The translations under genes were made by a program, and so were the position numbers. A stretch of 64,000 nucleotides of DNA, taken from contig CM102290.1 of assembly GCA_046563655.1 (NCBI GenBank), positions 3,596,001-3,660,000 on the forward strand. Reading direction: 5' to 3'. A model generated the notes under the pieces. It had not been told where the DNA came from. It did no database searches and saw only the letters and a program-made list of their open reading frames with translations. Positions 3,001 through 51,100 of the stretch are shown in pieces (position 1 is the first letter of the stretch; each line of letters starts with the position of its first letter). This stretch comes from Yuukianura sp. NJ FZ-2021 (lineage: Eukaryota).

Positions 3001-3270
3001 TTTATGTCAACAGTCTGCACACAGATTGACCTCTTTCTGCGACAATACAAAAGTTCCTGTACCGTGAGGCAGTTGCCCAACTTCCTCTGCCTATCCAAGC
3101 ACATGGTTGTAAAACTACTTTCTTCCGCCAGTTTCTTTACTGTCAAATTTATACAGGGTTAACCAGTACCCAGGTTCTGGGTACTAACCCACTGGGCATA
3201 ATGGGCTAACACCCATCGAGCTTTTGTGCCAACCGGTTGTTTAAATTGAACGTTTGAGTGTGTTTTCTTA

Positions 3271-32793: not shown

Positions 32794-34460
32794 TCAACTA
32801 CTTACGACTTGTTCCGTACCGTTCGGCTGGGGGTCACTTTCTTCTTCAAAATCTTCGTCCTCTTCCTCCATTGTTTCTCTGAGGATCTGGACTTGTCGAA
32901 GATGTTTCTTTGATTTTTCGTGGTTCATAAATCTGGAATTTCGAAAATTTGTACTTGCTTAAAATCATGTAACAGTTCGTCAACTTTTCTAATAAAAGTG
33001 AACGAAACTTACGCCTTGTCTGTTCGAAACGATTTGTTGCAAACTTCGCAATAGAGACAATCCTCTTCCTCCTCTGAGTCGACGTCATTCGTATCACCGA
33101 ATTCATCAGCTATCCATTCCTCCATTTCCTAAACCACATCACTAGGTTATGACACTTAACAACGCTATCAGTTAATTAACTGCACTTAACATGAGTTTAG
33201 CTAACCTTTAGCTGGTCCTTACTCGGATGACCATTGGACACCCCTCCATGCCCATTTTTCACTGCGTCCAGCATCTCCTTTCGTTCCTGCTGTCGCTTGG
33301 CTTTCTCTTCGGCGAATTTCTTTGCTAAACTTTCTTCTTTCTCTTTCATACGTATCTCTTGCTCGGCCTTCCACGCTTGTACCCGCTTGTCCTTACGTTT
33401 GACAAAATCAACCAGGGCTCTTACGCGCTGATTCCAGTCCTTCTTGGCTTCGGCCCTCAGTTTCTTGTTTTCTTTGTCCATCATTCTAGAAACCTGGATT
33501 AAATCACCTGAAAATGAGGAAGTCGTTTTGGGTAATGTAAGCAACGAGTTATAATCACTCACCCGTCGGCTTCCGGCATGTCTGGTATCATACTCGTCAA
33601 ACCAAGCAAAGTTTTTCCGAGTACAGAAAGATTCCCAAAAGGCATAAAAAGGTCCGACTTCCTGTAAATGACCAAAGCACTAATTAATACACTGCTAAAC
33701 AATAACTTGCAACTGTTTTAATGGATACAACTTACTTCATATGATGATAAACCATCACCAAAGGACGGAATTTCGTCATCGGAGCCTTCACGTCCTGCTT
33801 CGACTTCTTCAGCTCCAATTTTTTCAAATAACTTCCTAGAGATCAAACGAAGAACTATGCAATTCCGACAAATGTACGTTGTGGCCTGAGTTAAATTTTG
33901 GAAGAGCCTTACCTGTAAACTGTGTAGAACCCTTCGTCGTCATCGCCAAAACCCTTGTAACACGATGAGCAACAAAAGGCCATTATATCAATACTGTCAT
34001 CATCAAAGTCTTCATTGAGACCTAAATACAGACACAAACATGGTCAATCTAAACCAAAGGAACCGAAAATTGCTTTGCGAATTCGATTGAAACGTGTCTA
34101 ACCCCCTCTTAAAATAGCATGTCGATGTTCGTCATACCAGGCTCGTTCCTGTGGGTTACTCAACACCTCATACGCTTGCTGTAGAACTTGAAACTCCGCT
34201 TTCGCTTCTTCATGTCTCTCCGGATTCTTATCTGCAATTAAAACCGTCAAACATCATCAAATATCGCTGAGAACGTATGACGAGTAATTAATAAATTGTC
34301 CTAATACAAATGCAACACTACTTTGCAATCGTCCGTGTTAATGTAACTCACCCGGATGCAACTGAAGAGCCAGTTTCCGAAACGATTTCTTGATCTCGTC
34401 ATCTGTCGAATTCCTTTCGATACCGAGGACTTCATAGTAGCACTTCTTTAATACTGGCAT
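32794..34460 (-). CDS. DNAJC21: DnaJ homolog subfamily C member 21 (Jjj1-like 60S maturation co-chaperone)
   Basis: Exons 34460-34352, 34231-34103, 34021-33913, 33835-33736, 33661-33563, 33493-33206, 33128-33013 and 32932-32794. J-domain KCYYEVLG...LHPDKN, zuotin-homology region ([23 protein letters not shown]), zinc finger [25 protein letters not shown]. The 3' end is uncertain (possible donor at 32805). Confidence 0.9.
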
Positions 34461-35038
34461 TATGATGCACCTTTAAAAATAATACCTGAAATCAAAAAAA
34501 CAAACAATAATCAACAATTCATAAAATACTCCTTCAATCATAAATTTGAACAGTAAACCTTTACAGGATTAATCTCTTTACCTTATTTGATTTCTTAGTA
34601 AGTAAGTAGTAAGTTCCAAATCCGAGTGAAACAAATTCCTTACCTCGCTGAGCAGTACGGTCCTTTACTTCTACTTCACTAATTCCAAATTTTTACAACA
34701 AATTAATCGAAATTTAGAAAACCGATACTCCCAGTCCCCCAGCCGAAAGCCAATTTTGCATGGAAAAGGAAGTGCAAAAGAGAAAAGAGTTGCAGCAGCG
34801 AATTTCCGACTTGCTAATTTTGTCGCATTTTAGTCGAAATGAATTCAAAGAAAATCCATCCCGCTAGAAGTCAAAGTCTGTAAGAAAACGTCTCATTGCA
34901 CACACAGTAACACGCTGTAATAAATAAAACTCAATTAACAATTTATTTAACAAAATCAATTAAGTTAAATATTAATTTATATACCTATGCCGAGGTGATT
35001 GCTCCTGATAACCGTAATATAAAAGTACTTTTTAACGT

Positions 35039-36437
35039 TTATTCATCAATCTCCATTTCCTTCTCCTTTTCTTCTTCACTGTCATTATCGCTAATATTAG
35101 GCTCAACTTTTGCAATTGGCAACACTTCTGTCCATCCTTTCCGCCGCCGGACGAATTCAAAGATCTTATCCCTGAAACCATCCTTGGGACACGTTGAGGC
35201 AATCGTTTCAAATAATTGTTGAATTTCAACGTTGAGTTTTCTACTTGTCACTTTGAGGTTGGCAATCCACAGCGGAAGAGAATGTTTGTCCGTCATTTCT
35301 TCAGCTACTTCACCAATCCTTCCACCGTGTGTCAAAATAGCAATGATCGTTCGTTGCGTCTTGACCCGCTCAATTAGGAAAGACGAACAGAGAAATTTAA
35401 TAGTTGGTGACTTCTGGGCAATCTTCCAGTCTTCTCTCGTTTTCAGTCCATGGTAAAGAATGTTCAGAATCCAACTACGACTCTCCCTAAACAGAATCAA
35501 AGTTGAAAACCACTGAAGATCCAAATAAGCATCATGCTGAATTGTGAATGTGATTTTCTTACCTTTTTTCATCTCCATCGTTGTAGAATGGAATGAACTG
35601 AGGCAGTATAGTCATTTCGATAGTCGGTTGAGCAAAGAGGGCTGTTGTGACACGTTTGAACATTGAATGTGACGGGAGCCTCAAAACTGACCAAACTCCT
35701 ACCATCCAAGTCGACAAAAGATGAGAAATACGGCATTCACCCAATTCGACAATCCCACGCTTCAACCCGGTAAGCACATGTAAGTAGAGCTTGGCATCCT
35801 TGTTTCGTGCCGTCTGTAGTCAAATCATTGATGAAAAATTCATAAAATTACGCATTCAGTATTTGAAAAAAGTTGGCGTTTGTTTACGCACCTTTGTCTT
35901 CGACCTTTCAAAATTATCCATCAGTCGTTGAAAAGCTAAAAACGACTCAGCCCTTAAAACTTCATCTTCCAGGGCCATTCCACGCAGTATAAAATATACC
36001 CATCCATAGGACACGACTTTCACCCCGTCGCAGACATTTTGTTCGTGTAGAATATGACAAAGAAGCGGTATGAGAAATGTCATGTCGTATGAAGCTGAGG
36101 TTTTGCTTTCTTTAGAAGAATCGTATTGAAAAGCTGTATGATAAGCCTTGGGTTCCTCTATTGTTCCGCTCAGAATTGCGTTGGCCTTGACGGAATGGGC
36201 ATAGAGTGGATTGGATACTGCTGAAGTGGGAGGCTGCGCAGCTTTGGGACCGAACATCACCATCGGTTCAACCGAACGATGTTTCAGAACTTGCAAAATT
36301 TTCCTGTCTGATGGAGATAGAGTGGCTCCATACCATTGCAATAGTTTTTCAGTATCTGTTTTCTCAAGCAGCTCCGTAGTAAGCTCTTCAACATCCGGTA
36401 GGGTTACAAGGTCTGCTTCTTCGTGCTTCCGCTTCAT
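35039..36437 (-). CDS. URB1: URB1/Npa1 C-terminal region only (~414 aa from the first ATG)
   Basis: Exons 36437-35892, 35813-35563 and 35486-35039 are in frame. LLQWYGATLSPSDRKILQVL, YDMTFLIPLL and WILNILYHGLKT correspond to URB1 C-terminal motifs (LLGAYGATLS..DQKIL, YDPxFL, WxxxxLxxG). The true start is uncertain; upstream acceptors lie at 36464/36461. Confidence 0.75.
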
Positions 36438-38694: not shown

Positions 38695-41600
38695 ATGAAC
38701 TTTTTAACACTTTTACTTTTTGTTTTGCTAAAATTCACTCTTGGAAATGATTACTTCACGTCTCCTGCTGCAATCCAAAAATTAATCAAAGGTAATCCAA
38801 AAAATTAAGTTCCTAAAAATGTTTCTAAAAATCTTAATTTTTAGTGGAACAGCAATTGCTGTCGGCACTTTCAGACTACGCTTCTATGCTGGAAAGGAGA
38901 ATGGAGAAAGTGAAAGAGTAAAAGTTTGTTTCTAACAAAACTATAAGCATTTTTTAATTCCTTAACATTTTTTTTATAACTTAAGCAGATATCTAAACGA
39001 TTACGAAGAAAGTGTTTTAAGCGGGAGAATTCAAAATAAAGATGTCGAAAACGGACTATGGGATTTGAACAACAATTTTGAACATATGCATGAACTAAGC
39101 GTCGAAGTGTCTTCACATCCTCTTAAGTCGTATCGTCTCATACGACGCTTCGTCGTCCAACTTCAAAATTTAGAACAAGATCTGGCTAATCAAGATGAAA
39201 AAAGTTGAGACACTTTATTTTATGAAAATTTTTAAAACAGCCAGAATTTCATTTTTAAGTTTTTACTTTTTTTTAGAATTACTAAACGTAATGGAAAAAA
39301 TTCGAAGAGGAATTCGATTTCCACAGACGCGGGACTTTGAAGGATCGATTGAAGGGCTCCTCAGAGTTCAAGATGCTTATGACCTCAATATCACCGAAGT
39401 AAAGCTTTTGAAACTAATCAAGTCTTTAATTTTTTTTTTGAAAAGTGTTTCGAAATTTTAAACGAGAGTCAGTTTGTTCTAAATATACTTTTTAAATTAG
39501 TTTACACAAGGAAGATTTCAAGGGCTAGAAACAAACTCTCCGCTAACAGCAAGCGACTGCTACCAAGTTGGAATGTACGCCTACGAAGCTCAGATTCACA
39601 CTCGATCCATTGTTGGTGACTTTTTGAAAAAAAGATTTGATTTTTCTATGTATTTTCAAAATTTCGAAATTCATTTACTCAGGAATGGCTTCAAAGGGCT
39701 TATATTCTTGTAACCCAAGAAAGTGATACAACGATGGACGCAGAAACAATCGGCAAAGCTCTCGAATCGGCCATTACTCAGGTTCATAATTCAAAATTTC
39801 TTTTCAAAAACTGAATTTTCAAAATTTCAAAAAACTGTTTTTGAATTTAGCATGATGAGGTACTAAACGAAGATCCAACTAACATCTACCTCCACCGCCA
39901 CCCTGTTGGTAGCCTTCCAGAACTTTTGTCACGTCCAGACGTTCGTTTAGAAAAAGTGGCTGATCAGCGTCAGTACGTTCTGTACAAAGAACAGGAAAAT
40001 ATCCACGACCTGTACAACTTTGCTGCTCTTTGTTCTGGAAAATCACTCCAGGTAACTTTTAACGAGCCAACTTTTTTGAAAGTTGAAATTCTAAAACGCC
40101 CCGGGGGACTTTTTAGCTCGAAAGTCAAAAGCGGCAGTTGAGCTGCTTTCGTCGGCCGACTGCTGGAGTTCCAATTCTAACCGAGAAAGTGGAAGTGTTG
40201 CACTCGAGTCCAGACGTTATTCAAGTCTACGATGTTCTGAGTGAAGCCACAATTAGCAAAATCCTTGAAGTGGCCACTCCGGTCATGATGAGGTCAAAAG
40301 TTCAAGGGGCAAGTTGGGAAGAGCAGCATTCCAATACTAGAACGTCCACTTCAGCGTGGATCCCGGAAGATGAAGGGCTAAGGGCTCTGTCCAGGAGAAT
40401 CCAAGGGCTCAGTGGCCTTGCCACTCAGGCTCCGAATGCAGCCGAGGATTTACAAATTTCGAGTTATGGCATAGGGGGTCACTACAATCCACATCTTGAT
40501 CTTCTATTCGAAGATGTAAGCCACTTTCAAAAAAAAATCTTACCTAACGTAACCTAGCTTAAAACGGATAGTTATCGCTTCTAATTGCAAGGAAGTAAAA
40601 AAAAATTAAACCTCGTAGTTGAAAAATTCAAAACTGGATTTGAAGATGCATTTGTTAGAGTGATTTTGAAAATTTTAAAATATTTTGTTTCGTGCTTAAA
40701 ATTTTGGGAGTAAAAGTAGGAGTTTAGGTCTTGGGAAAGCGGGTAATCTGAGTAAATACCCGGGTAGGTTTCTAATTAGTTTTGTGTTTTGTTCCAGTAT
40801 GTTCCTGGACCGGAGGAGCGTGTGAAGGGAGACCGAATTGCAACATTCCTGTTCTACGTAAGTTCCTTGTGCAACCTGACCATGGTGAATATCCACTTTG
40901 GATCCAATTAGTGACCTGGAGGGACCCCTCCCTTGGCTTGGATTTCTCATTCTAATAATTTCCTAATAAAGGAACTCTCTATATTAAATTCATAGTTGTC
41001 AGACGTACAGCGTGGAGGGGGAACGGCATTTCCAAGGCTTGGAGTTATTGCACAACCTGTGAAAGGATCAGCCATCTTCTGGTAATAACCAATCAAAAAC
41101 GTATTAGAAACAAAATCGGTTTCGAAAAAACAACTGTTTAAATGACAAAGACGACGAAACTTATGTATGAAATTAAAAATTTTAACAAACAGCACATAGG
41201 TTTGGGGAAAAAATTCGGACGATTTTTTTAATGGGTGAAATTTGAAATGAAAGTGAATGGGTGAAAGCTAAAAGGCTGCTTTTTTGCAGGTACAACTTAA
41301 GGCAGGATGGTACAACGGATCCATTGAGTTTACATGGAGGTAATACAAAACTTAGAAAAAAATTAATAACGACACAAAAATAATTGGCAACTTATCCACA
41401 ATTTGGGATAACTTTGATATTTAGTTACTTTCGGTTCCTTTTTTTCCAGGAAAGAGTCTTAATGACGATATGATATCCATCAACACATATTTAATTTCAA
41501 ATTAAACGAACATTTTTTTTTGAATTTTCAGGATGTCCTGTTCTATATGGAACTAAGCACGGTAATTTACTTGTTTTTTTTTTCAAACGAGAATTTTCAG

Positions 41601-42094: not shown

Positions 42095-43167
42095 ATGCCA
42101 CGCAAGTGTCTCTTTGACGTCGTCTCGTCCAACCAAGTCCGGGAAACCATCAACATGGAAGCCAGAGCACGAGAGCACTGGTATTTTTTTCTAAATTTAC
42201 AATTAGTTTAATTAAAATTAAACTAAACTAATTAGTTTTTATACTTTTAGGTTCAAGCACAACAAGGATCTCATCTGGTGCAACAACATTGGTCCGATCC
42301 AAGGTCGAATCATTGCCATTTGCGAGGACAAGCAAGAGTAAGTACATTTATGTTTTGATCCGTGACCTTTGACCTCAACATTTTGTTTTCAGATTGGCTC
42401 GCAAGTTGATGGACAGTCAAGACGAGTACTTCAAGTTCTGCAAACCACCGCCGAAGCAATGTCCAAATCAACTCGTGCTTCAAATTGGCCCTGATCCGTG
42501 TGACGAATGCTACCAAGATCCGACCATCCCAATGCGCACGCCTCCAGACGAACAACGGGCACTTCTCTTCGAAGGTTTGTTCAAAACAAAGTAGTTTTTT
42601 AAATAAAGTGTTTAGAACAAGGACAATAGAGCTGAAGGAATAGAAGTAGAACATCCTATTGATTTTTCATAACTTATATAAGGAATTGAGGTGAAGGGAA
42701 ATCATAATTTTCGACTAATCATCTCGATTGTTCTCTCAGAAAAGTTTTTGTTCCAAAAGTGTCTCCAAAGAGGTTTCCAAACAACCAAAACTTTCTCCTT
42801 TTCATCCATAATTTACCAAAAAACTAAGTTTTCAATTCAAACTTAGTCATTAGCTAACTAACCCAAATTATTTTTGAATGGTTTTGATTCAGTAATTTTC
42901 TTTGAATCTTTAGGACACAGTAGTGAAGGTCGTGGAACCTATGGCTACCTCAAGGATCGCTACAATTGCGGCCTTCCAGAAACGAAATTTTGTCGTCCGC
43001 CAACCACCAACTCCGAATATGCTTGGAAACTACTGGAAACTGTTCGAAACAATACGCCAAGTTGCTGTGCTCCAGGAGCAATCACGCGCAAGAGCACGAT
43101 TGGTTCGTTCTACCGCTCCCGCGGAGTTCTCTGTCAAGCGGACTTTGCTCCTTTCCACTTTCCTTGA
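42095..43167 (+). CDS. SPMIP1/ATP6V1FNB-like sperm microtubule inner protein
   Basis: Exons 42095-42180, 42251-42337, 42393-42574 and 42914-43167. ALLFEGHSSEGRGTYGYLKDR...PETKFCRPPTTNSEYAWKL...SFYRSRG resembles the recalled ATP6V1FNB pattern LLYEGIS..QGRY.YL..R....PE..Y.FP.TTS..YGW.L...SFFRKNG. Confidence 0.7.
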
Positions 43168-44130
43168 ACTTCCGACCTCTTCCGAATCATAACGAACTTC
43201 ATTTCCGAAAAACTACATTTTAAAAATCTCAAAATTTCAAAATATTTCAATACGTATTAGTACACCCACCCTCTCTCTCAAACTACTGCGTCTTTAGCAA
43301 CCTTTGCCGTCTAATTAAATAAATTTACTCGTCAGGTTATGAAAACTTTAGAAATGGTAAGTTTTTGTAATATATTTTAGTTAAAAGTGTTTCAATTGTA
43401 TATTTTTAAGAATACATTTAAAAAGTTTCTAACTTTTTCGAAATTGCTTGCATATTTGAGTTGGGCTACTTTGCAATGTAGTTGAAACGTTCCTTTGAAA
43501 AGTTCCCCTTATCTGCTACCTCCGTCCTTTAAAAAAATCAACGCTGTTTATTGAAAACAACCAAAAGACGTAAGGAATGTAATTATTTTAATTATTATAT
43601 ATATAAATGTTTAAACTTTTGTCGTTTTATGAATAAAATTAAATTGGTAATTGAAAACATTAAAGAAAATAACTTGCCCAGTACAGCATCAATACTCCCG
43701 AGGTGAGAATTGCTATCGTGCGTGAAATTTAGATAAACCAATTGCAATTTTGAATAAGGTGTTAAAACTTAGCGTTGATTGTCGTTAATTCAGACGTAAA
43801 TTAATTGTATACTCGATTGATATTCAGAGTATGTGACATTTGTTCATGACCCCAACTAAAGGTGTTTCCAGGTTTTTGCAATAGTAAGTTAATCACTTAT
43901 TAATCTTTGTCGAATATGATACGTTCGTTTGCTATTTTTTTTTATAGTTCCGGTTCCGGTCCCGGTCGGTATCCACTCCAATTCGGAACACCGGAATCCG
44001 GTTCTGGAAAAGTTGTTCTATTAAGAATGTTTACGCTAGTTTGAATTAAGACTCTTTTTTTACAGGCTCAATTGCGAACGTTAAAGCAATCATCGTCCCC
44101 GTGAGATCCAAATATTCTACACTGCAAATT

Positions 44131-46227
44131 ATGGACAGTACACACGGAGAAGCTGAAGAAATTGTTGCAAATCAGATCCCGGAACCGTCCCAGATTCCGC
44201 AGATTGGCATGCGGAGACCGATGAAGATTAGGCGTAGAAGACAACAGAAACCGGTTATTGACAGGGACAAAATGATTCCAGTTGCTAAGTACAAAGATCA
44301 GCTAATCAACACCAGCGATACTTTACGTCAATTTGACCCTGCCCCACGAAGTAAACGAGCCATGTATCTAACAGCTTATGAAAGTGTGGGCAAGCTGTTC
44401 TCTAGTCCAGGTTAGAAGTGATTTAGTTTTCTACCTGCATGAAACTGCAGTAATCCTCAATTTTTTGCCTATATGATTTATTGTTGAACTTTATTTACTT
44501 CTTTTAGGGCGGAATATTCCAAGTCCCCTGATATCTACGTTTTTCTACCGGTGTTTGACGCTGAAGACGGAGCTTCAACCTGAAGTAGAAATTGACAAAA
44601 ACGGTTTCCTTTACTTGCCTCCTTTAGATCCGGAATTACGTAAGTACTTTAGCATTGTGTCGATTTGGATTTTTGTAAATCATGTCTTTACCTACCTAGG
44701 ATGTACAAACAAGGTTCCGATTTATTCTGAGGAGTCTGTCATCGACATGGACAAACGTAATGACCATTCTATTTCCCTGAATTATAATTTTGAGAACACA
44801 GTATTTATCGTTTTCTTACGCTTCACAGCCTCTACTGTCACCAAACATGCAGATTCGTTTGATAGACTAGTTCATGGGATGTGCAAGCACAGAGTAAGTT
44901 TGTTTTTATATAAGTAGTAGCAGAATTTATGAGGTTTCTTAGCTTGTGCTTTACTAATTTTAATTTTTAGAACAGTAAGGCTGCAGGGCTTACACAAAAA
45001 CGACGTAAGAGTCTCCAGATTGCTCAATCACTTCTAGCTACGCACAGTGCTTCCTGTCCTCCACCTCGTGTAAACGATATTGTGCTGCCTGAAGTATCGG
45101 AACAACTCAAAATTGAAGTTGACCCGGCCGACATAACTCAAGATAATACCACGATAGAATTCAAAATTGAAATTGACTCCGTTTGTATACCCGACGTCAG
45201 CAAACCGGTAGAACCCCAAATCGAAGTTGATCATTGTGATATGTCTCACGATGAGCCACAGCGAGTCTTTGAGCCAGCACCGTTGACTGCGGCTTCCGAA
45301 GTCCACGACCCTCCCATGGCCTCCGATGTTGAATTTCCGGAGCCTCGTGCCTTTCAACAACACTGTCCATCTCAACTGGTAGTTGAACAAAAGCAATCTG
45401 TGATGGAAGATCCAAATTGCACAACCATACAGAAATCTGAATTTTCCATGTCTGAAGAAAACGACCACGACACGTACGATTCAAAAAATGTTTTGCCTAT
45501 GTGCCAAGAAGCAAAAGTAGAACAACTTGCACCAGCACTTGATATGGCCGAAATGCACGAGGGTGAGAATGAGAGCTTATCAGAACAGGAGTTAGTACAA
45601 GACAATTCAGAACAATTTTTTGCTGAAGAAATATTACCAGACGTTCCCAACGACGATCCGTACAGCACAAGCGAGCAAATGTTACCATCTGATTTACATC
45701 ACCGAAGTCCTGCTGAGCAGTACAACCCTACTGAAATGATGACACGAGAGCATCCAGAGAACTTCCTAACTGAAATCTTGTCTTTGTCGCCTGGTCAATC
45801 TCACCAACCTCTATCTGAAGACTACTACGACTGCATCCAGGAACCATTGTCTCACGAAGAAATTTTATCCACCGATGGTGAATCGCTATCAACTGAAGAG
45901 TACTACGAGGTCAACCAGCCTCTCTTGCACCATGGCTTGACAAAAGAAGCGTTCGCAACTGACTTGAACTTCAGTCCGAAACAAGAAGATTCCAGCCAAC
46001 ATTTTGTCAATGGGAAAACTGAGACAGTTCTCATTGGGCATCATGATAATGAAGACGACTCTGTCACTATTTATGACGTTCCTGTTACAAGCGACTCGCT
46101 TCCACGCGGCAGTGTTCTATACTACGCTGCTGCTACCGGTCGTGATGTAACACTGCTCGGCAATACTCCTGGTCCTTCTCGTCCATCTTCTGGTCCTCCT
46201 GGTCAATTTTACGTCTATATACCATGA
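44131..46227 (+). CDS. ~596-aa acidic, low-complexity protein with an N-terminal RAD21-like STAG/SA-binding segment
   Basis: Exons 44131-44410, 44508-44639, 44700-44756, 44829-44893 and 44971-46227 total 597 codons in frame. KPVIDRDKMI..KYKDQLINTSDTLRQFDPAPRSKRAM......VGKLFSSPGRNIPSPLISTFFYRCLT aligns with the RAD21 central motif [35 protein letters not shown]......VEKLFSLPAQPL....LLKLFTRCLT. Confidence 0.75.
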
Positions 46228-48169: not shown

Positions 48170-51100
48170 TTAGAACCACGATCCACTTCCAAGTTTTGAA
48201 GTGAGACCGCCTAGCCCTTTGCCGACGACATTTCCGACTTTTCCGACTACGCTCGAAGAAGCTGTCGTTAGTTTGGATACAAAATTGGCACCATCTTCCC
48301 CTACGGCTTCTCTCGCAGTTACTTTTGGCTTCCGATCGGTTTCGTCTTCTCCGCCATCAACATAAGCCCTGAAGGTCAAAAGGTCAACGTTACTTATCAT
48401 AATATTGTTTGTTATTTGTTATAATATGAAAATTGTTGGAATTAGTATCAAGTTACCCGTCGTCGTCTCCTCGAGTACCCATTAGGGAACAGGTCGCTTC
48501 TTCTGTGGTCATTCGATTTGATACGGTTTGATAGGCCTTGCTGTTCAACTTCTCCTCCATGACGCCTTGAAGCTCGAAATCCGAATACAGTTTCTGCCGA
48601 AGTCAAATTGGTGGTGAGTTGAAGTACCCAGGACCCTTAGCTTGACCTAAAGACTTACCCGAACAATATGGACGAGACAAGTACACTGGTAAGGATGCAA
48701 GGAATGGTCCAACCTCTCCGATAACCAACTACATAAACTCTGCATCTGAAGTGTATACCATAACTGCAAAAAAAGGAAGCCAAAAGTTAGTTGAATTCAT
48801 CCTTGTGAAATATGTTTTAAAAATGTTTACCTCAAAAAAGTTTATTATCCACAGGTCGTCCGTGACCTTTGTGCGGATTTGATCCATGCAGTTTCGAGTG
48901 AAGTTGACATAGGCCTGTCCCAACTCCCGTCCAGAACCGGATACGTTTTGCTGAAAACACAAATTCCGAGATTCAACCACTACCCGCGTAAAATTCATAC
49001 GAAGTTAGACCTACCGTGAAGCTTAGGAGTGAACCAATAAGGCTCCCTTCGTCATACCGAGACAACTTGGACAGGGTACTGTCAAGAACGGACATCAACT
49101 TTGACGTCAGTCCCTGCGTCATTCCTGTCAGGGCCTTGTCAATCAGGTCATCAATTTTGGTATGGTACTGATGCTGAAAAACAACATTTCATATGTTAGT
49201 TTTATTATGTAGCGTAAGCTACTTATTGATTTGATCTTGTCTGTCTGTCTGTCCGTCTCCGGCAATTATCTCGGAAACGGCTCTTTCCGAAATCTGTCTT
49301 TGGCGGTGGACACCTAGTAACCCGATGATGCTCACTACTGAATATCATCTCAGTGGGTCAACTCCTTCCAGGTCAAAGGTCAAGGTCAACCGGTTTGATT
49401 GTCGGTAACATAGAAAATGACCTCTTCAAAAATTGTTCGTCTCATAGAGACCAACAACTTTTGCGAAAATCACATGACCCGTAGTGACCTCTTGCGGGTT
49501 CAAGGTAAACTTTTTTTCTTGCGCTACTTTTGTATATTCCGATTTATTCTAAATGAAAACGGAGAGCAGAATTTTGAAAAGAGGGGATTCTTACGACATC
49601 TACTCCGTCAACGGCACAAAGTTTGAGAGACTGGTTCTTGGCGTCGAGAATAACGTTGATCATGGCACACATTTCCGTTGGGATGTTGTAGTCAGTGGAG
49701 ATGAAGGTGACGCCCTTCTTGATCCACTGCTGGTAACTCGTGTCTGTCCTCTGAATGCAGGACTCAATCATATCACAGGCCATTAACTTCAGACGCTGTT
49801 CCAAGTGACAGCCAAACTCGGCACTAGGCCAGTGGAGGTCACGGATAAACGCTTGGAGAGCGTCCAACTTCCAAAACAGGTCATCCGACGTTCCACATCC
49901 ATTGCTACAACGAAACCAAAAGAAAAATTAATGTCTTTTTGAAATTTCCCAGCGTTAACAATGACTCAGAAGGAGGTCACTGGAGCATCCCTTACCCCTT
50001 TAGCTCCCAGCGTTCCTTTTCAAATCCCTTGTGAATGGATTGAGCGATTGAGGATTCCATGAGGTCCACGTATCGTACGACGAGCGGCGCAAAAGTGGAC
50101 TGCAAATGTTGATGAAACCTCCCATTTTTCAAGTTGTCTGGAACATAAACTGATGTGAATCATCCGTGACCTTTGACCTTTGACCTTGACCTTACCGTCA
50201 GTACGAAGGTAGTCGTTGAGGATTTGAAAGAGCGGAAAAGCATCCCATGTGTCTGGCGGTTGTTCGGCTAGAACTTGGTCCATGTCCACGGCAAAAAGTG
50301 ACCAAAAGATTTCAGCATGCTCCACTAGCAGATCACTGAACCATGCGAATGCCTGGAAAGTCAGAGCAGAGCAAAGGTCAAACGGTTAACATTTCCAAAA
50401 AAAATTTAAGCGAATGGCTTTAACTTTCAAAATTTAAAAAAATTTAATAAGAGAGAAAGAGAAAAGAGGCTGCTAAATTTGTTAAACTGCTAAAATTTGT
50501 AATTTCCTGGTCGCTTCCAAGAAAATTTGCAGAATCAATACAAAATTTTGATGCAGTCAAGGTTTCTTTGTTTACGTATTTTCTTGAGGTAGTTTATATA
50601 CATTAATTGATGTAATTAAAGTTGAACTTTTTCATACTTTCATTATGAAAATGTAGTAAACAAAGTGACCACTACGCAATAAAGTAAATATGTCTTAAGA
50701 AACTACACTTCTAAAAAACTGAGACTAGAAATCATTGAATTCTTTGCTTTTACAACTGTCGTGTGATTTAACGTAAAAGAAAGCGGCGCCAGGAAGCCGT
50801 GCTTGTGCGAAGGCCTCTAAAAATCGTAGTTTTTTTTTCATTGTAATTTAAGAAAACAAATTCTCAAAGAATTAGAAAAAACAGAAGCTCGAAAGTCGAA
50901 AAACACTGCATAACAAAACCGCTAGGTTGTAAGGAGTTTAAGGGTGTTAAATTTCATGTGAAAAGTAGTTGATAAATATTGCTCGTAAACGTTTAGTTTC
51001 CAAATTTTCACAACTTTGCTAACTTTCGGATTTTTGAATTTTGGAGCACAGTTTACTAAAAAAACGTATTTTTTTTTACTGTAAATTAGATGAGTTTTTG

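Follow-up and report, generated by a model that had tools for sequence, protein, structure and literature searches.

The Drosophila protein UNO (univalents only, CG8712) has been described as derived from an alpha-kleisin of which only the stromalin-binding region (aligned with Rad21 320-394) and a separase site have been kept; it binds the stromalin paralog SNM outside cohesin, multimerises via another domain and links homologs in male meiosis, and the same accounts know it only from Brachycera, with no report from Anopheles, Aedes or Culex (PMC9767379, PMC7529252). SOLO (sisters on the loose), a protein of Diptera, is described as binding the SA-like protein SUNN by its middle and SMC1 by a C-terminal end that ordinary searches miss; it has no recognisable kleisin N-terminal end, its gene has exons in common with vasa and sits inside a vasa intron, and REC8 is said in that description not to have been identified in insects (PMC13693663). 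Here, we analyze a stretch of 64,000 nucleotides from Yuukianura sp. NJ FZ-2021 (assembly GCA_046563655.1, contig CM102290.1, positions 3,596,001 to 3,660,000; referred to as the window), in which a gene at 44131-46227 encodes a protein that carries the SA (STAG)-binding segment of RAD21 and neither of the two SMC-binding kleisin ends, and which, to judge from a tree and from an intron position, belongs to an old family of such "end-less" RAD21 paralogs in winged insects. All positions given below are those of the whole window, and the strand is + unless stated otherwise.

The gene has five coding exons that join to 1791 nt, enough for 596 codons and the terminating TGA, and no other stop interrupts them. 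All its introns are bordered by GT..AG, as read on the window DNA, and the frame is open throughout, so the initial annotation of this locus as an intact 5-exon open reading frame (ORF) of ~596 codons holds. The donor of exon 1 reads CCAG/GT (the slash marking the splice point), which makes the first intron a phase-1 intron within a Gly codon. Because the G+C content of the window is only 37.4%, the 418-codon exon 5 is not a chance open frame. The features of the gene are listed below, together with their counterparts in L001, which holds an ortholog from another species and is one of eight related loci (L001-L008) obtained in an alignment-based scan of metagenome contigs; the L001 contig is 5573 bp long.

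44064-44065, +: candidate acceptor AG, preceded by a T-run and 66 nt upstream of the ATG; layout as in L001
44131-44410, +: coding exon 1, with the ATG, codons 1-93 and the initial base of Gly94; N-terminal two thirds of the SA-binding core
44227-44596, +: RAD21-type SA/STAG-binding module, residues 33 to ~123, split by intron 1 (44411-44507)
44508-44639, +: coding exon 2, with the end of the SA-binding core and an LYLPPLDPEL motif; conserved in L001 at 2652-2780
44700-44756, +: coding exon 3, 19 codons; splice sites read; L001 ORF 2819-2950 weakly alike, by eye only
44829-44893, +: coding exon 4; counterpart conserved in L001 at 3023-3085
44971-46227, +: coding exon 5 of 418 codons, acidic and without a recognised domain; ends in the stop TGA (46225-46227)

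The AG at 44064-44065 is probably the end of an intron in the 5' untranslated region, and the first ATG after it is the one at 44131. Extra coding exons, made up from the open frame upstream of this ATG and two small ORFs at 43629-43702 and 43948-44011, were considered and rejected, as their splice phases do not fit and a hidden Markov model (HMM) of the end-less clade finds nothing there (E<1).

The likeness to RAD21 resides in an 86-residue core, residues 33-118, which corresponds to human RAD21 316-401 in the register of an alignment of exon 1 to structures in the PDB. When exon 1 alone was compared with PDB sequences, the top-ranking entries were chains of human RAD21 in complex with SA2 (4pju_B and others; E 0.041, 17 bits, residues 33-93 of the query), and the alignment extends to the last residue of the exon. 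A HMMER scan of 1.84 billion representative proteins gave eight matches at E<=0.001, six of them true relatives (best 2e-9) and two repeat proteins, and a profile of exon 1 and the six relatives matched human RAD21 313-399 in the PDB at E 3e-17. As this profile includes the window's own sequence, a second, independent test was made with an HMM for which the 86-residue core was taken exclusively from canonical RAD21 proteins, 26 of them. Over 8854 six-frame ORFs from the window and the eight loci, the only window ORF matched by this canonical HMM was 44050-44412, at E 1.1e-10; against the spliced protein, it scored 51.9 bits over residues 34-114 (human RAD21 ~317-397), a match that crosses the junction of exons 1 and 2 and thereby confirms their splice. 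The initial annotation had equated residues ~35-110 with the central RAD21 segment, and the significance of that alignment is now established by a profile that is not circular. Exon 1 had no usable match in a protein atlas, in which a neighbouring ORF matched unrelated clusters only, and found nothing in a search restricted to longer homologous proteins, and an alignment-based search limited to proteins of 1057-3015 aa returned two canonical RAD21s.

The contacts of human RAD21 with STAG1 are given as residues 321-345 and 356-395 (PMC10003631), and both stretches fall within the aligned core of the window protein. The RAD21 residues S334, I337 and L341 are described as lining the conserved essential surface (CES) pocket for YxF ligands (PMC10279526); in the exon-1 PDB register, L341 is kept as Leu58, I337 is replaced by Tyr54 and S334 by Val51. 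Thirteen core columns reach a conservation of 90% or more both in canonical RAD21 and in the end-less clade; the window protein keeps 11 of them and L001 all 13.

No trace of the SMC-binding ends was detected. Pfam finds neither Rad21_Rec8_N (PF04825) nor Rad21_Rec8 (PF04824) in the exons at E<=10, and no kleisin-end domain in the 135 + strand ORFs of at least 28 aa between 36500 and 49600 at E<=1. End HMMs, built from the first 125 and the last 95 residues of 35 canonical RAD21s, gave best E-values of 0.93 (N-terminal end) and 3.2 (C-terminal end) over all window ORFs of at least 10 aa on both strands, and 0.93 and 2.8, respectively, over the window and the eight loci together, where no kleisin ends were found; exon 5 has no match to the C-terminal HMM at E<=10. 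As controls, three of three left-out canonical proteins were recognized at E<=3e-79 by the N-terminal and at E<=6e-36 by the C-terminal model. The same absence extends to the end-less relatives: Pfam reports no kleisin domain at E<=1 in any of nine family members, as compared with 4e-42 and 3e-12 for the two domains in the canonical RAD21 of Ischnura (P0072), and alignment of the N- and C-terminal parts of the family with the canonical ends by hhalign yields probabilities of 0.07% and 0.14%. Within the reach of sequence methods, both kleisin ends are thus absent from the RAD21-like protein, and the initial failure to see an N-terminal Rad21/Rec8 domain or a C-terminal winged helix is reproduced with Pfam and with the end HMMs alike.

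What remains of the protein is a leader of ~32 residues before the module and, after it, a tail of ~470 acidic residues with no recognised domain (residues 126-596: pI 4.4, 18% D+E), in keeping with the acidic remainder noted at the outset. In the tail and next to the module, an [IVL]-E-[IV]-D motif occurs four times, at residues 120, 226, 244 and 262 (exons 2 and 5), the last three ~18 residues apart in the acidic part, and a P-x-[IV]-D-P/Y motif found after the core in the end-less family is related to it. There are only two [DE]xxR matches in the protein, at residues 63-66 and 273-276; the second (EPQR, exon 5, ~45730), which has acidic residues before it and is the only one outside the SA-binding core, is a candidate separase site whose conservation in L001 was not seen by eye. 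The last ~60 residues, like the C-terminal blocks of the family, have a helix-then-strands look, by eye only.

Comparison with L001, in which exons 1, 2 and 4 were matched in order by tblastn, suggests that the gene is real and maintained. The last-exon ORF of L001 is intact (343 codons) and acidic, and its leader has ~35 residues before the basic stretch, with the layout seen in the window. An acceptor-like site lies 25 nt before the L001 ATG, and because an in-frame TGA stands between this acceptor and the ATG, the N-terminus of L001 is truly short. Over the 86 codons of the core, the proportions of nonsynonymous and synonymous differences between the window and L001 (pN and pS) are 0.33 and 0.82; pS is saturated, so that no ratio can be given, but with pN well below a saturated pS the core is, by this measure, under constraint, and no other part of the protein is as well conserved between the two. 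The core is ~51% identical in the window and L001, against 79% for the exon of the neighbouring gene, SPMIP1, and by that yardstick the RAD21-like gene evolves fast.

How does the window protein compare with the described systems? Like UNO, it keeps the SA-binding segment and lacks either SMC-binding domain. UNO, however, is depicted as a protein of 417 aa with a beta-strand self-association domain, a linker with the separase site, the module near the C-terminus and a basic helix (PMC9767379), whereas in the window protein the module is N-terminal (33-123 of 596) and followed by the long acidic tail, with no basic-helix layout. The UNO module displayed in S2 Fig of PMC9767379 has moved much further from Rad21 than that of the window, in a comparison made by eye only. 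Tephritid UNO and human REC8, as displayed there, have an aromatic residue where human RAD21 has I337; by eye, the end-less clade shares this aromatic residue, and canonical arthropod RAD21 has Met instead. With canonical RAD21/Scc1/Verthandi the window protein shares the homologous central segment, but it differs in the lack of Rad21_Rec8_N and the winged helix and in the position of the intron at the end of the core. Like SOLO, compared through its description only, it is non-canonical and without a recognisable kleisin N-terminal end; unlike SOLO, it is flanked by a P4Ha_N gene, SPMIP1 and a MUN-domain gene, with no helicase domain among the ORFs scanned and no SMC1-binding C-terminal end seen.

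A word-index search with the alignment as query returned 104 matches, the majority of them canonical RAD21 with both Pfam domains, whose core is almost invariant across arthropods. It also returned a set of proteins with no Pfam domain, the following among them:

Gryllus bimaculatus GBIM_00941 (P0008): end-less member, 603 aa
Ischnura elegans P0019, named "rad21 homolog A-like": end-less member, 447 aa
Hetaerina americana P0020: end-less member, 455 aa
Ephemera danica P0029: end-less member, 448 aa
Neocloeon triangulifer P0038: end-less member, 440 aa

About a dozen further proteins and exon fragments complete this set. Its annotated, apparently spliced members span 351-603 residues and go under the database names "uncharacterized", "hypothetical" or "rad21 homolog A-like". 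Ischnura has both the end-less P0019 and the canonical P0072, so that in this species the paralog coexists with a normal RAD21. The mayfly members keep the arthropod-type YQRHLTS, which suggests that the family originated from arthropod RAD21 and not from REC8.

In a tree of 86 core columns and 38 rows (the window, L001, 10 end-less and 26 canonical proteins picked by hand, with short fragments, the near-duplicates P0027 and P0028 and loci L002-L008 left out), the 12 end-less rows separate from the 26 canonical rows with a support of 99/97. Since raw identity fails to place the window in the clade, we examined intron position as a rate-independent character. A phase-1 intron in the Gly codon of a PG motif (SSPG in the window) is present in the window and in eight of the eight loci, and nine of nine clade-type ORF fragments lose similarity at this very point, whereas canonical genomic fragments, in 20 cases of 26, continue for 10 more codons before breaking after a K/R, at a Val (GT..) codon, the other six reading on as spliced. 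The clade HMM matches the window protein at 71.1 bits over residues 30-123. The window further shares with the clade a small residue (G/S) in place of the canonical Glu of VEK and the aromatic residue at the position of human I337 (by eye), and an L-x-L-P-P-L-D-type motif after the core is common to the window and the end-less paralogs (by eye). Of the initial description of the gene as a stand-alone RAD21 STAG-binding module, then, the architecture without SMC-binding ends survives, and the idea of an isolated oddity gives way to a family united by the tree and by a common intron position; membership in an old end-less paralog family makes a simple recent truncation unlikely.

Outside the core, the window protein and its relatives part company. 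In the end-less paralogs of mayflies, damselflies and the cricket, the module is preceded by 160-330 residues that include conserved strand-like blocks, where the window has its short leader, and these paralogs also carry conserved C-terminal blocks (e.g., LLAAAE), to which the window tail has no significant match. Eleven members (P0019, P0020, P0008, P0029, P0030, P0035, P0038, P0023 and P0026-P0028) share the N-terminal strand-like blocks, a basic KRI[TS]R[KR]R patch and the C-terminal blocks, the latter with a strand, the LLAAAE helix and strands, the final one hydrophobic, and none of these blocks belongs to a known family; the damselfly and cricket paralogs have an identical 19-residue stretch after the core. 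The possibility that the window tail corresponds to the C-terminal blocks was considered but found no statistical support: in a shuffle test against nine members, the two best scored as 18 and 19 of 1000 shuffles and the other seven as 73-411 of 1000. An AlphaFold2 model of P0019 (12 sequences) is of low confidence, with a mean predicted local distance difference test (pLDDT) score of 38; its helices are confined to the SA-binding part (184-243), apart from one long helix that follows. In the mayfly-like members P0023, P0026-P0028, P0030 and P0035, on contigs of 1.6-13 kb, the ORFs run uninterrupted across the PG intron point; this fits cDNA-derived assemblies and, if they are such, may mean that the family is transcribed there.

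The sequence evidence shows the product to be a RAD21-descended protein that has kept the SA-binding segment only, with both SMC-binding ends gone. On balance, we lean toward the further reading that it partners an SA-type protein outside the SMC ring, which draws on the RAD21-SA structures and on the UNO precedent. The module (~33-123) would wrap onto an SA-type HEAT-repeat protein as RAD21 321-395 does, and the resulting SA-bound complex would be unable to close the SMC1-SMC3 ring. Such a complex might act as a ring-independent chromosomal adaptor, like UNO-SNM in Drosophila male meiosis; alternatively, the protein might compete with RAD21 for SA. The initial annotation had already proposed that the protein could bind STAG away from the cohesin ring, without naming the published precedent, Drosophila UNO with SNM (PMC9767379).

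Several observations weigh against this picture. The window core is the most diverged of the set, with 26-33 of 86 positions identical to canonical RAD21 and 28-33 of 86 to the clade, and the tree carries a warning that long branches meet, so that the grouping may be partly long-branch attraction. Two universally conserved core columns are altered in the window, with N in place of D and T in place of I. Nor could the blocks conserved at either end of the mayfly, damselfly and cricket members be detected in the window protein, in which the clade HMM finds no C-terminal domain, and a local alignment of the window tail with the L001 tail was scored as 367 of 1000 shuffles. Finally, the frame is open for 27 codons upstream of the window ATG, which leaves formal room for a coding 5' exon.

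CTCF, shugoshin and WAPL all dock onto cohesin at the interface of SA and RAD21. To our knowledge, no protein other than UNO has been described that employs the RAD21 half of this interface without the ring. The end-less proteins would be kleisin-derived SA partners of the kind known from UNO, in a family that appears to be without prior description: our literature search found UNO and SOLO, and no paper on an end-less RAD21 family outside Brachycera. A conserved family of this type, present in crickets, damselflies, mayflies and the window lineage, would give UNO a candidate ancestor, would show ring-free SA partners to be widespread and would offer tractable species, such as Gryllus, for asking what a complex of SA with a kleisin fragment does. 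More tentatively, and with considerable doubt, one may ask whether end-less RAD21 paralogs that pair with SA outside the ring are ancestral to winged insects and formed the stock from which UNO was later remodelled. The position of human I337 offers two leads in this direction, both by eye: the aromatic residue that the clade shares with tephritid UNO and human REC8, and the Met of canonical arthropod RAD21. If the idea holds, insects would put the SA-kleisin interface to a second use that needs no ring, perhaps in the germline, and this might be relevant to how they cope in the absence of a recognisable REC8.

Other explanations have to be set against a ring-free SA partner. The protein could be a cryptic, strongly diverged kleisin that still sits in the SMC ring, its tail binding SMC1 and a separate protein providing the SMC3 contact (a division suggested for Drosophila SOLO with SSEP), and thus a meiotic cohesin subunit that replaces REC8. 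SOLO, which binds SUNN by its middle and SMC1 by a C-terminal end unrecognised in ordinary searches, speaks for this, as does the failure to identify REC8 in insects (both as described in PMC13693663), and the helix-then-strands look of the C-terminal end of the window protein and of the family C-terminal blocks, by eye only, would fit. Against it, Pfam, the C-terminal HMM and hhalign (0.1%) all fail to find any similarity to a kleisin C-terminal end, the leader is only ~32 residues in the window and ~35 in L001, and solo sits in a vasa intron, whereas the window gene lies between SPMIP1 and the MUN-domain gene; the P0019 model, too, is without a folded C-terminal end, although with a mean pLDDT of 38 it is weak evidence. 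We consider a cryptic ring subunit unlikely. It is also conceivable that the module no longer binds SA, the protein having been re-used or bound to another HEAT-repeat partner, so that its RAD21 likeness is merely historical. The fast evolution of the core relative to the SPMIP1 exon and the two altered universal columns could be taken in this sense, but 11 of the 13 universal columns are kept in the window and 13 of 13 in L001, conservation between the two is highest in the core, and pN is well below saturated pS, all of which makes a loss of SA binding distinctly unlikely in our view.

The two remaining alternatives question the gene itself. The model might be incomplete, with the exons for the kleisin ends located outside the window or joined by long-range or alternative splicing, and the frame that stays open upstream of the ATG up to a good acceptor speaks for this. 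The surroundings speak against it: upstream, a stretch of 5 kb is occupied by a P4Ha_N gene and SPMIP1, both on the + strand, and downstream, at a distance of 3.3 kb, a MUN-domain gene begins on the - strand. Moreover, no N- or C-terminal match exists in the 64 kb or in the eight related loci, L001 has an in-frame stop before its ATG, and annotated family members of 351-603 residues also lack both ends; missing kleisin exons are therefore very improbable. Least credible of all is a decaying partial duplicate without function. The tail is certainly very diverged, with no significant C-terminal alignment even to L001, but a 596-codon frame in five exons with intact splice sites at 37% G+C, an intact last-exon ORF of 343 codons in L001, a constrained core and a family that extends across several insect orders all speak against it. 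These considerations return us to a RAD21-descended SA partner outside the ring as the reading to which we give preference.

The genes surrounding the RAD21-like gene were identified by Pfam scans of the window:

33197-35611, - strand: ZUO1-like (zuotin-like) and NopRA1 (URB1-like) genes
38966-39458, + strand: P4Ha_N gene (prolyl 4-hydroxylase alpha)
42862-43164, + strand: last coding exon of an SPMIP1-like gene (sperm microtubule inner protein 1; PF22589, E 2e-11), which bounds the locus on its 5' side
49544-50385, - strand: MUN-domain gene (unc-13-like)

The sperm-type neighbour of the initial annotation is thus SPMIP1, located directly upstream of the RAD21-like gene and on the same strand. 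Both order and strand are kept in L001, where an SPMIP1 exon at 548-790 is the upstream neighbour and is 79% identical to window 42862-43164. Scans of the window with Rfam and for tRNAs found nothing. In L008, a P4Ha-like match lies 6 kb from the RAD21-like exon, on the opposite strand. Between the end of SPMIP1 and the candidate acceptor, a short repeat of the GGTYCC type with a partial inverted copy is found at 43948-44010 (+).

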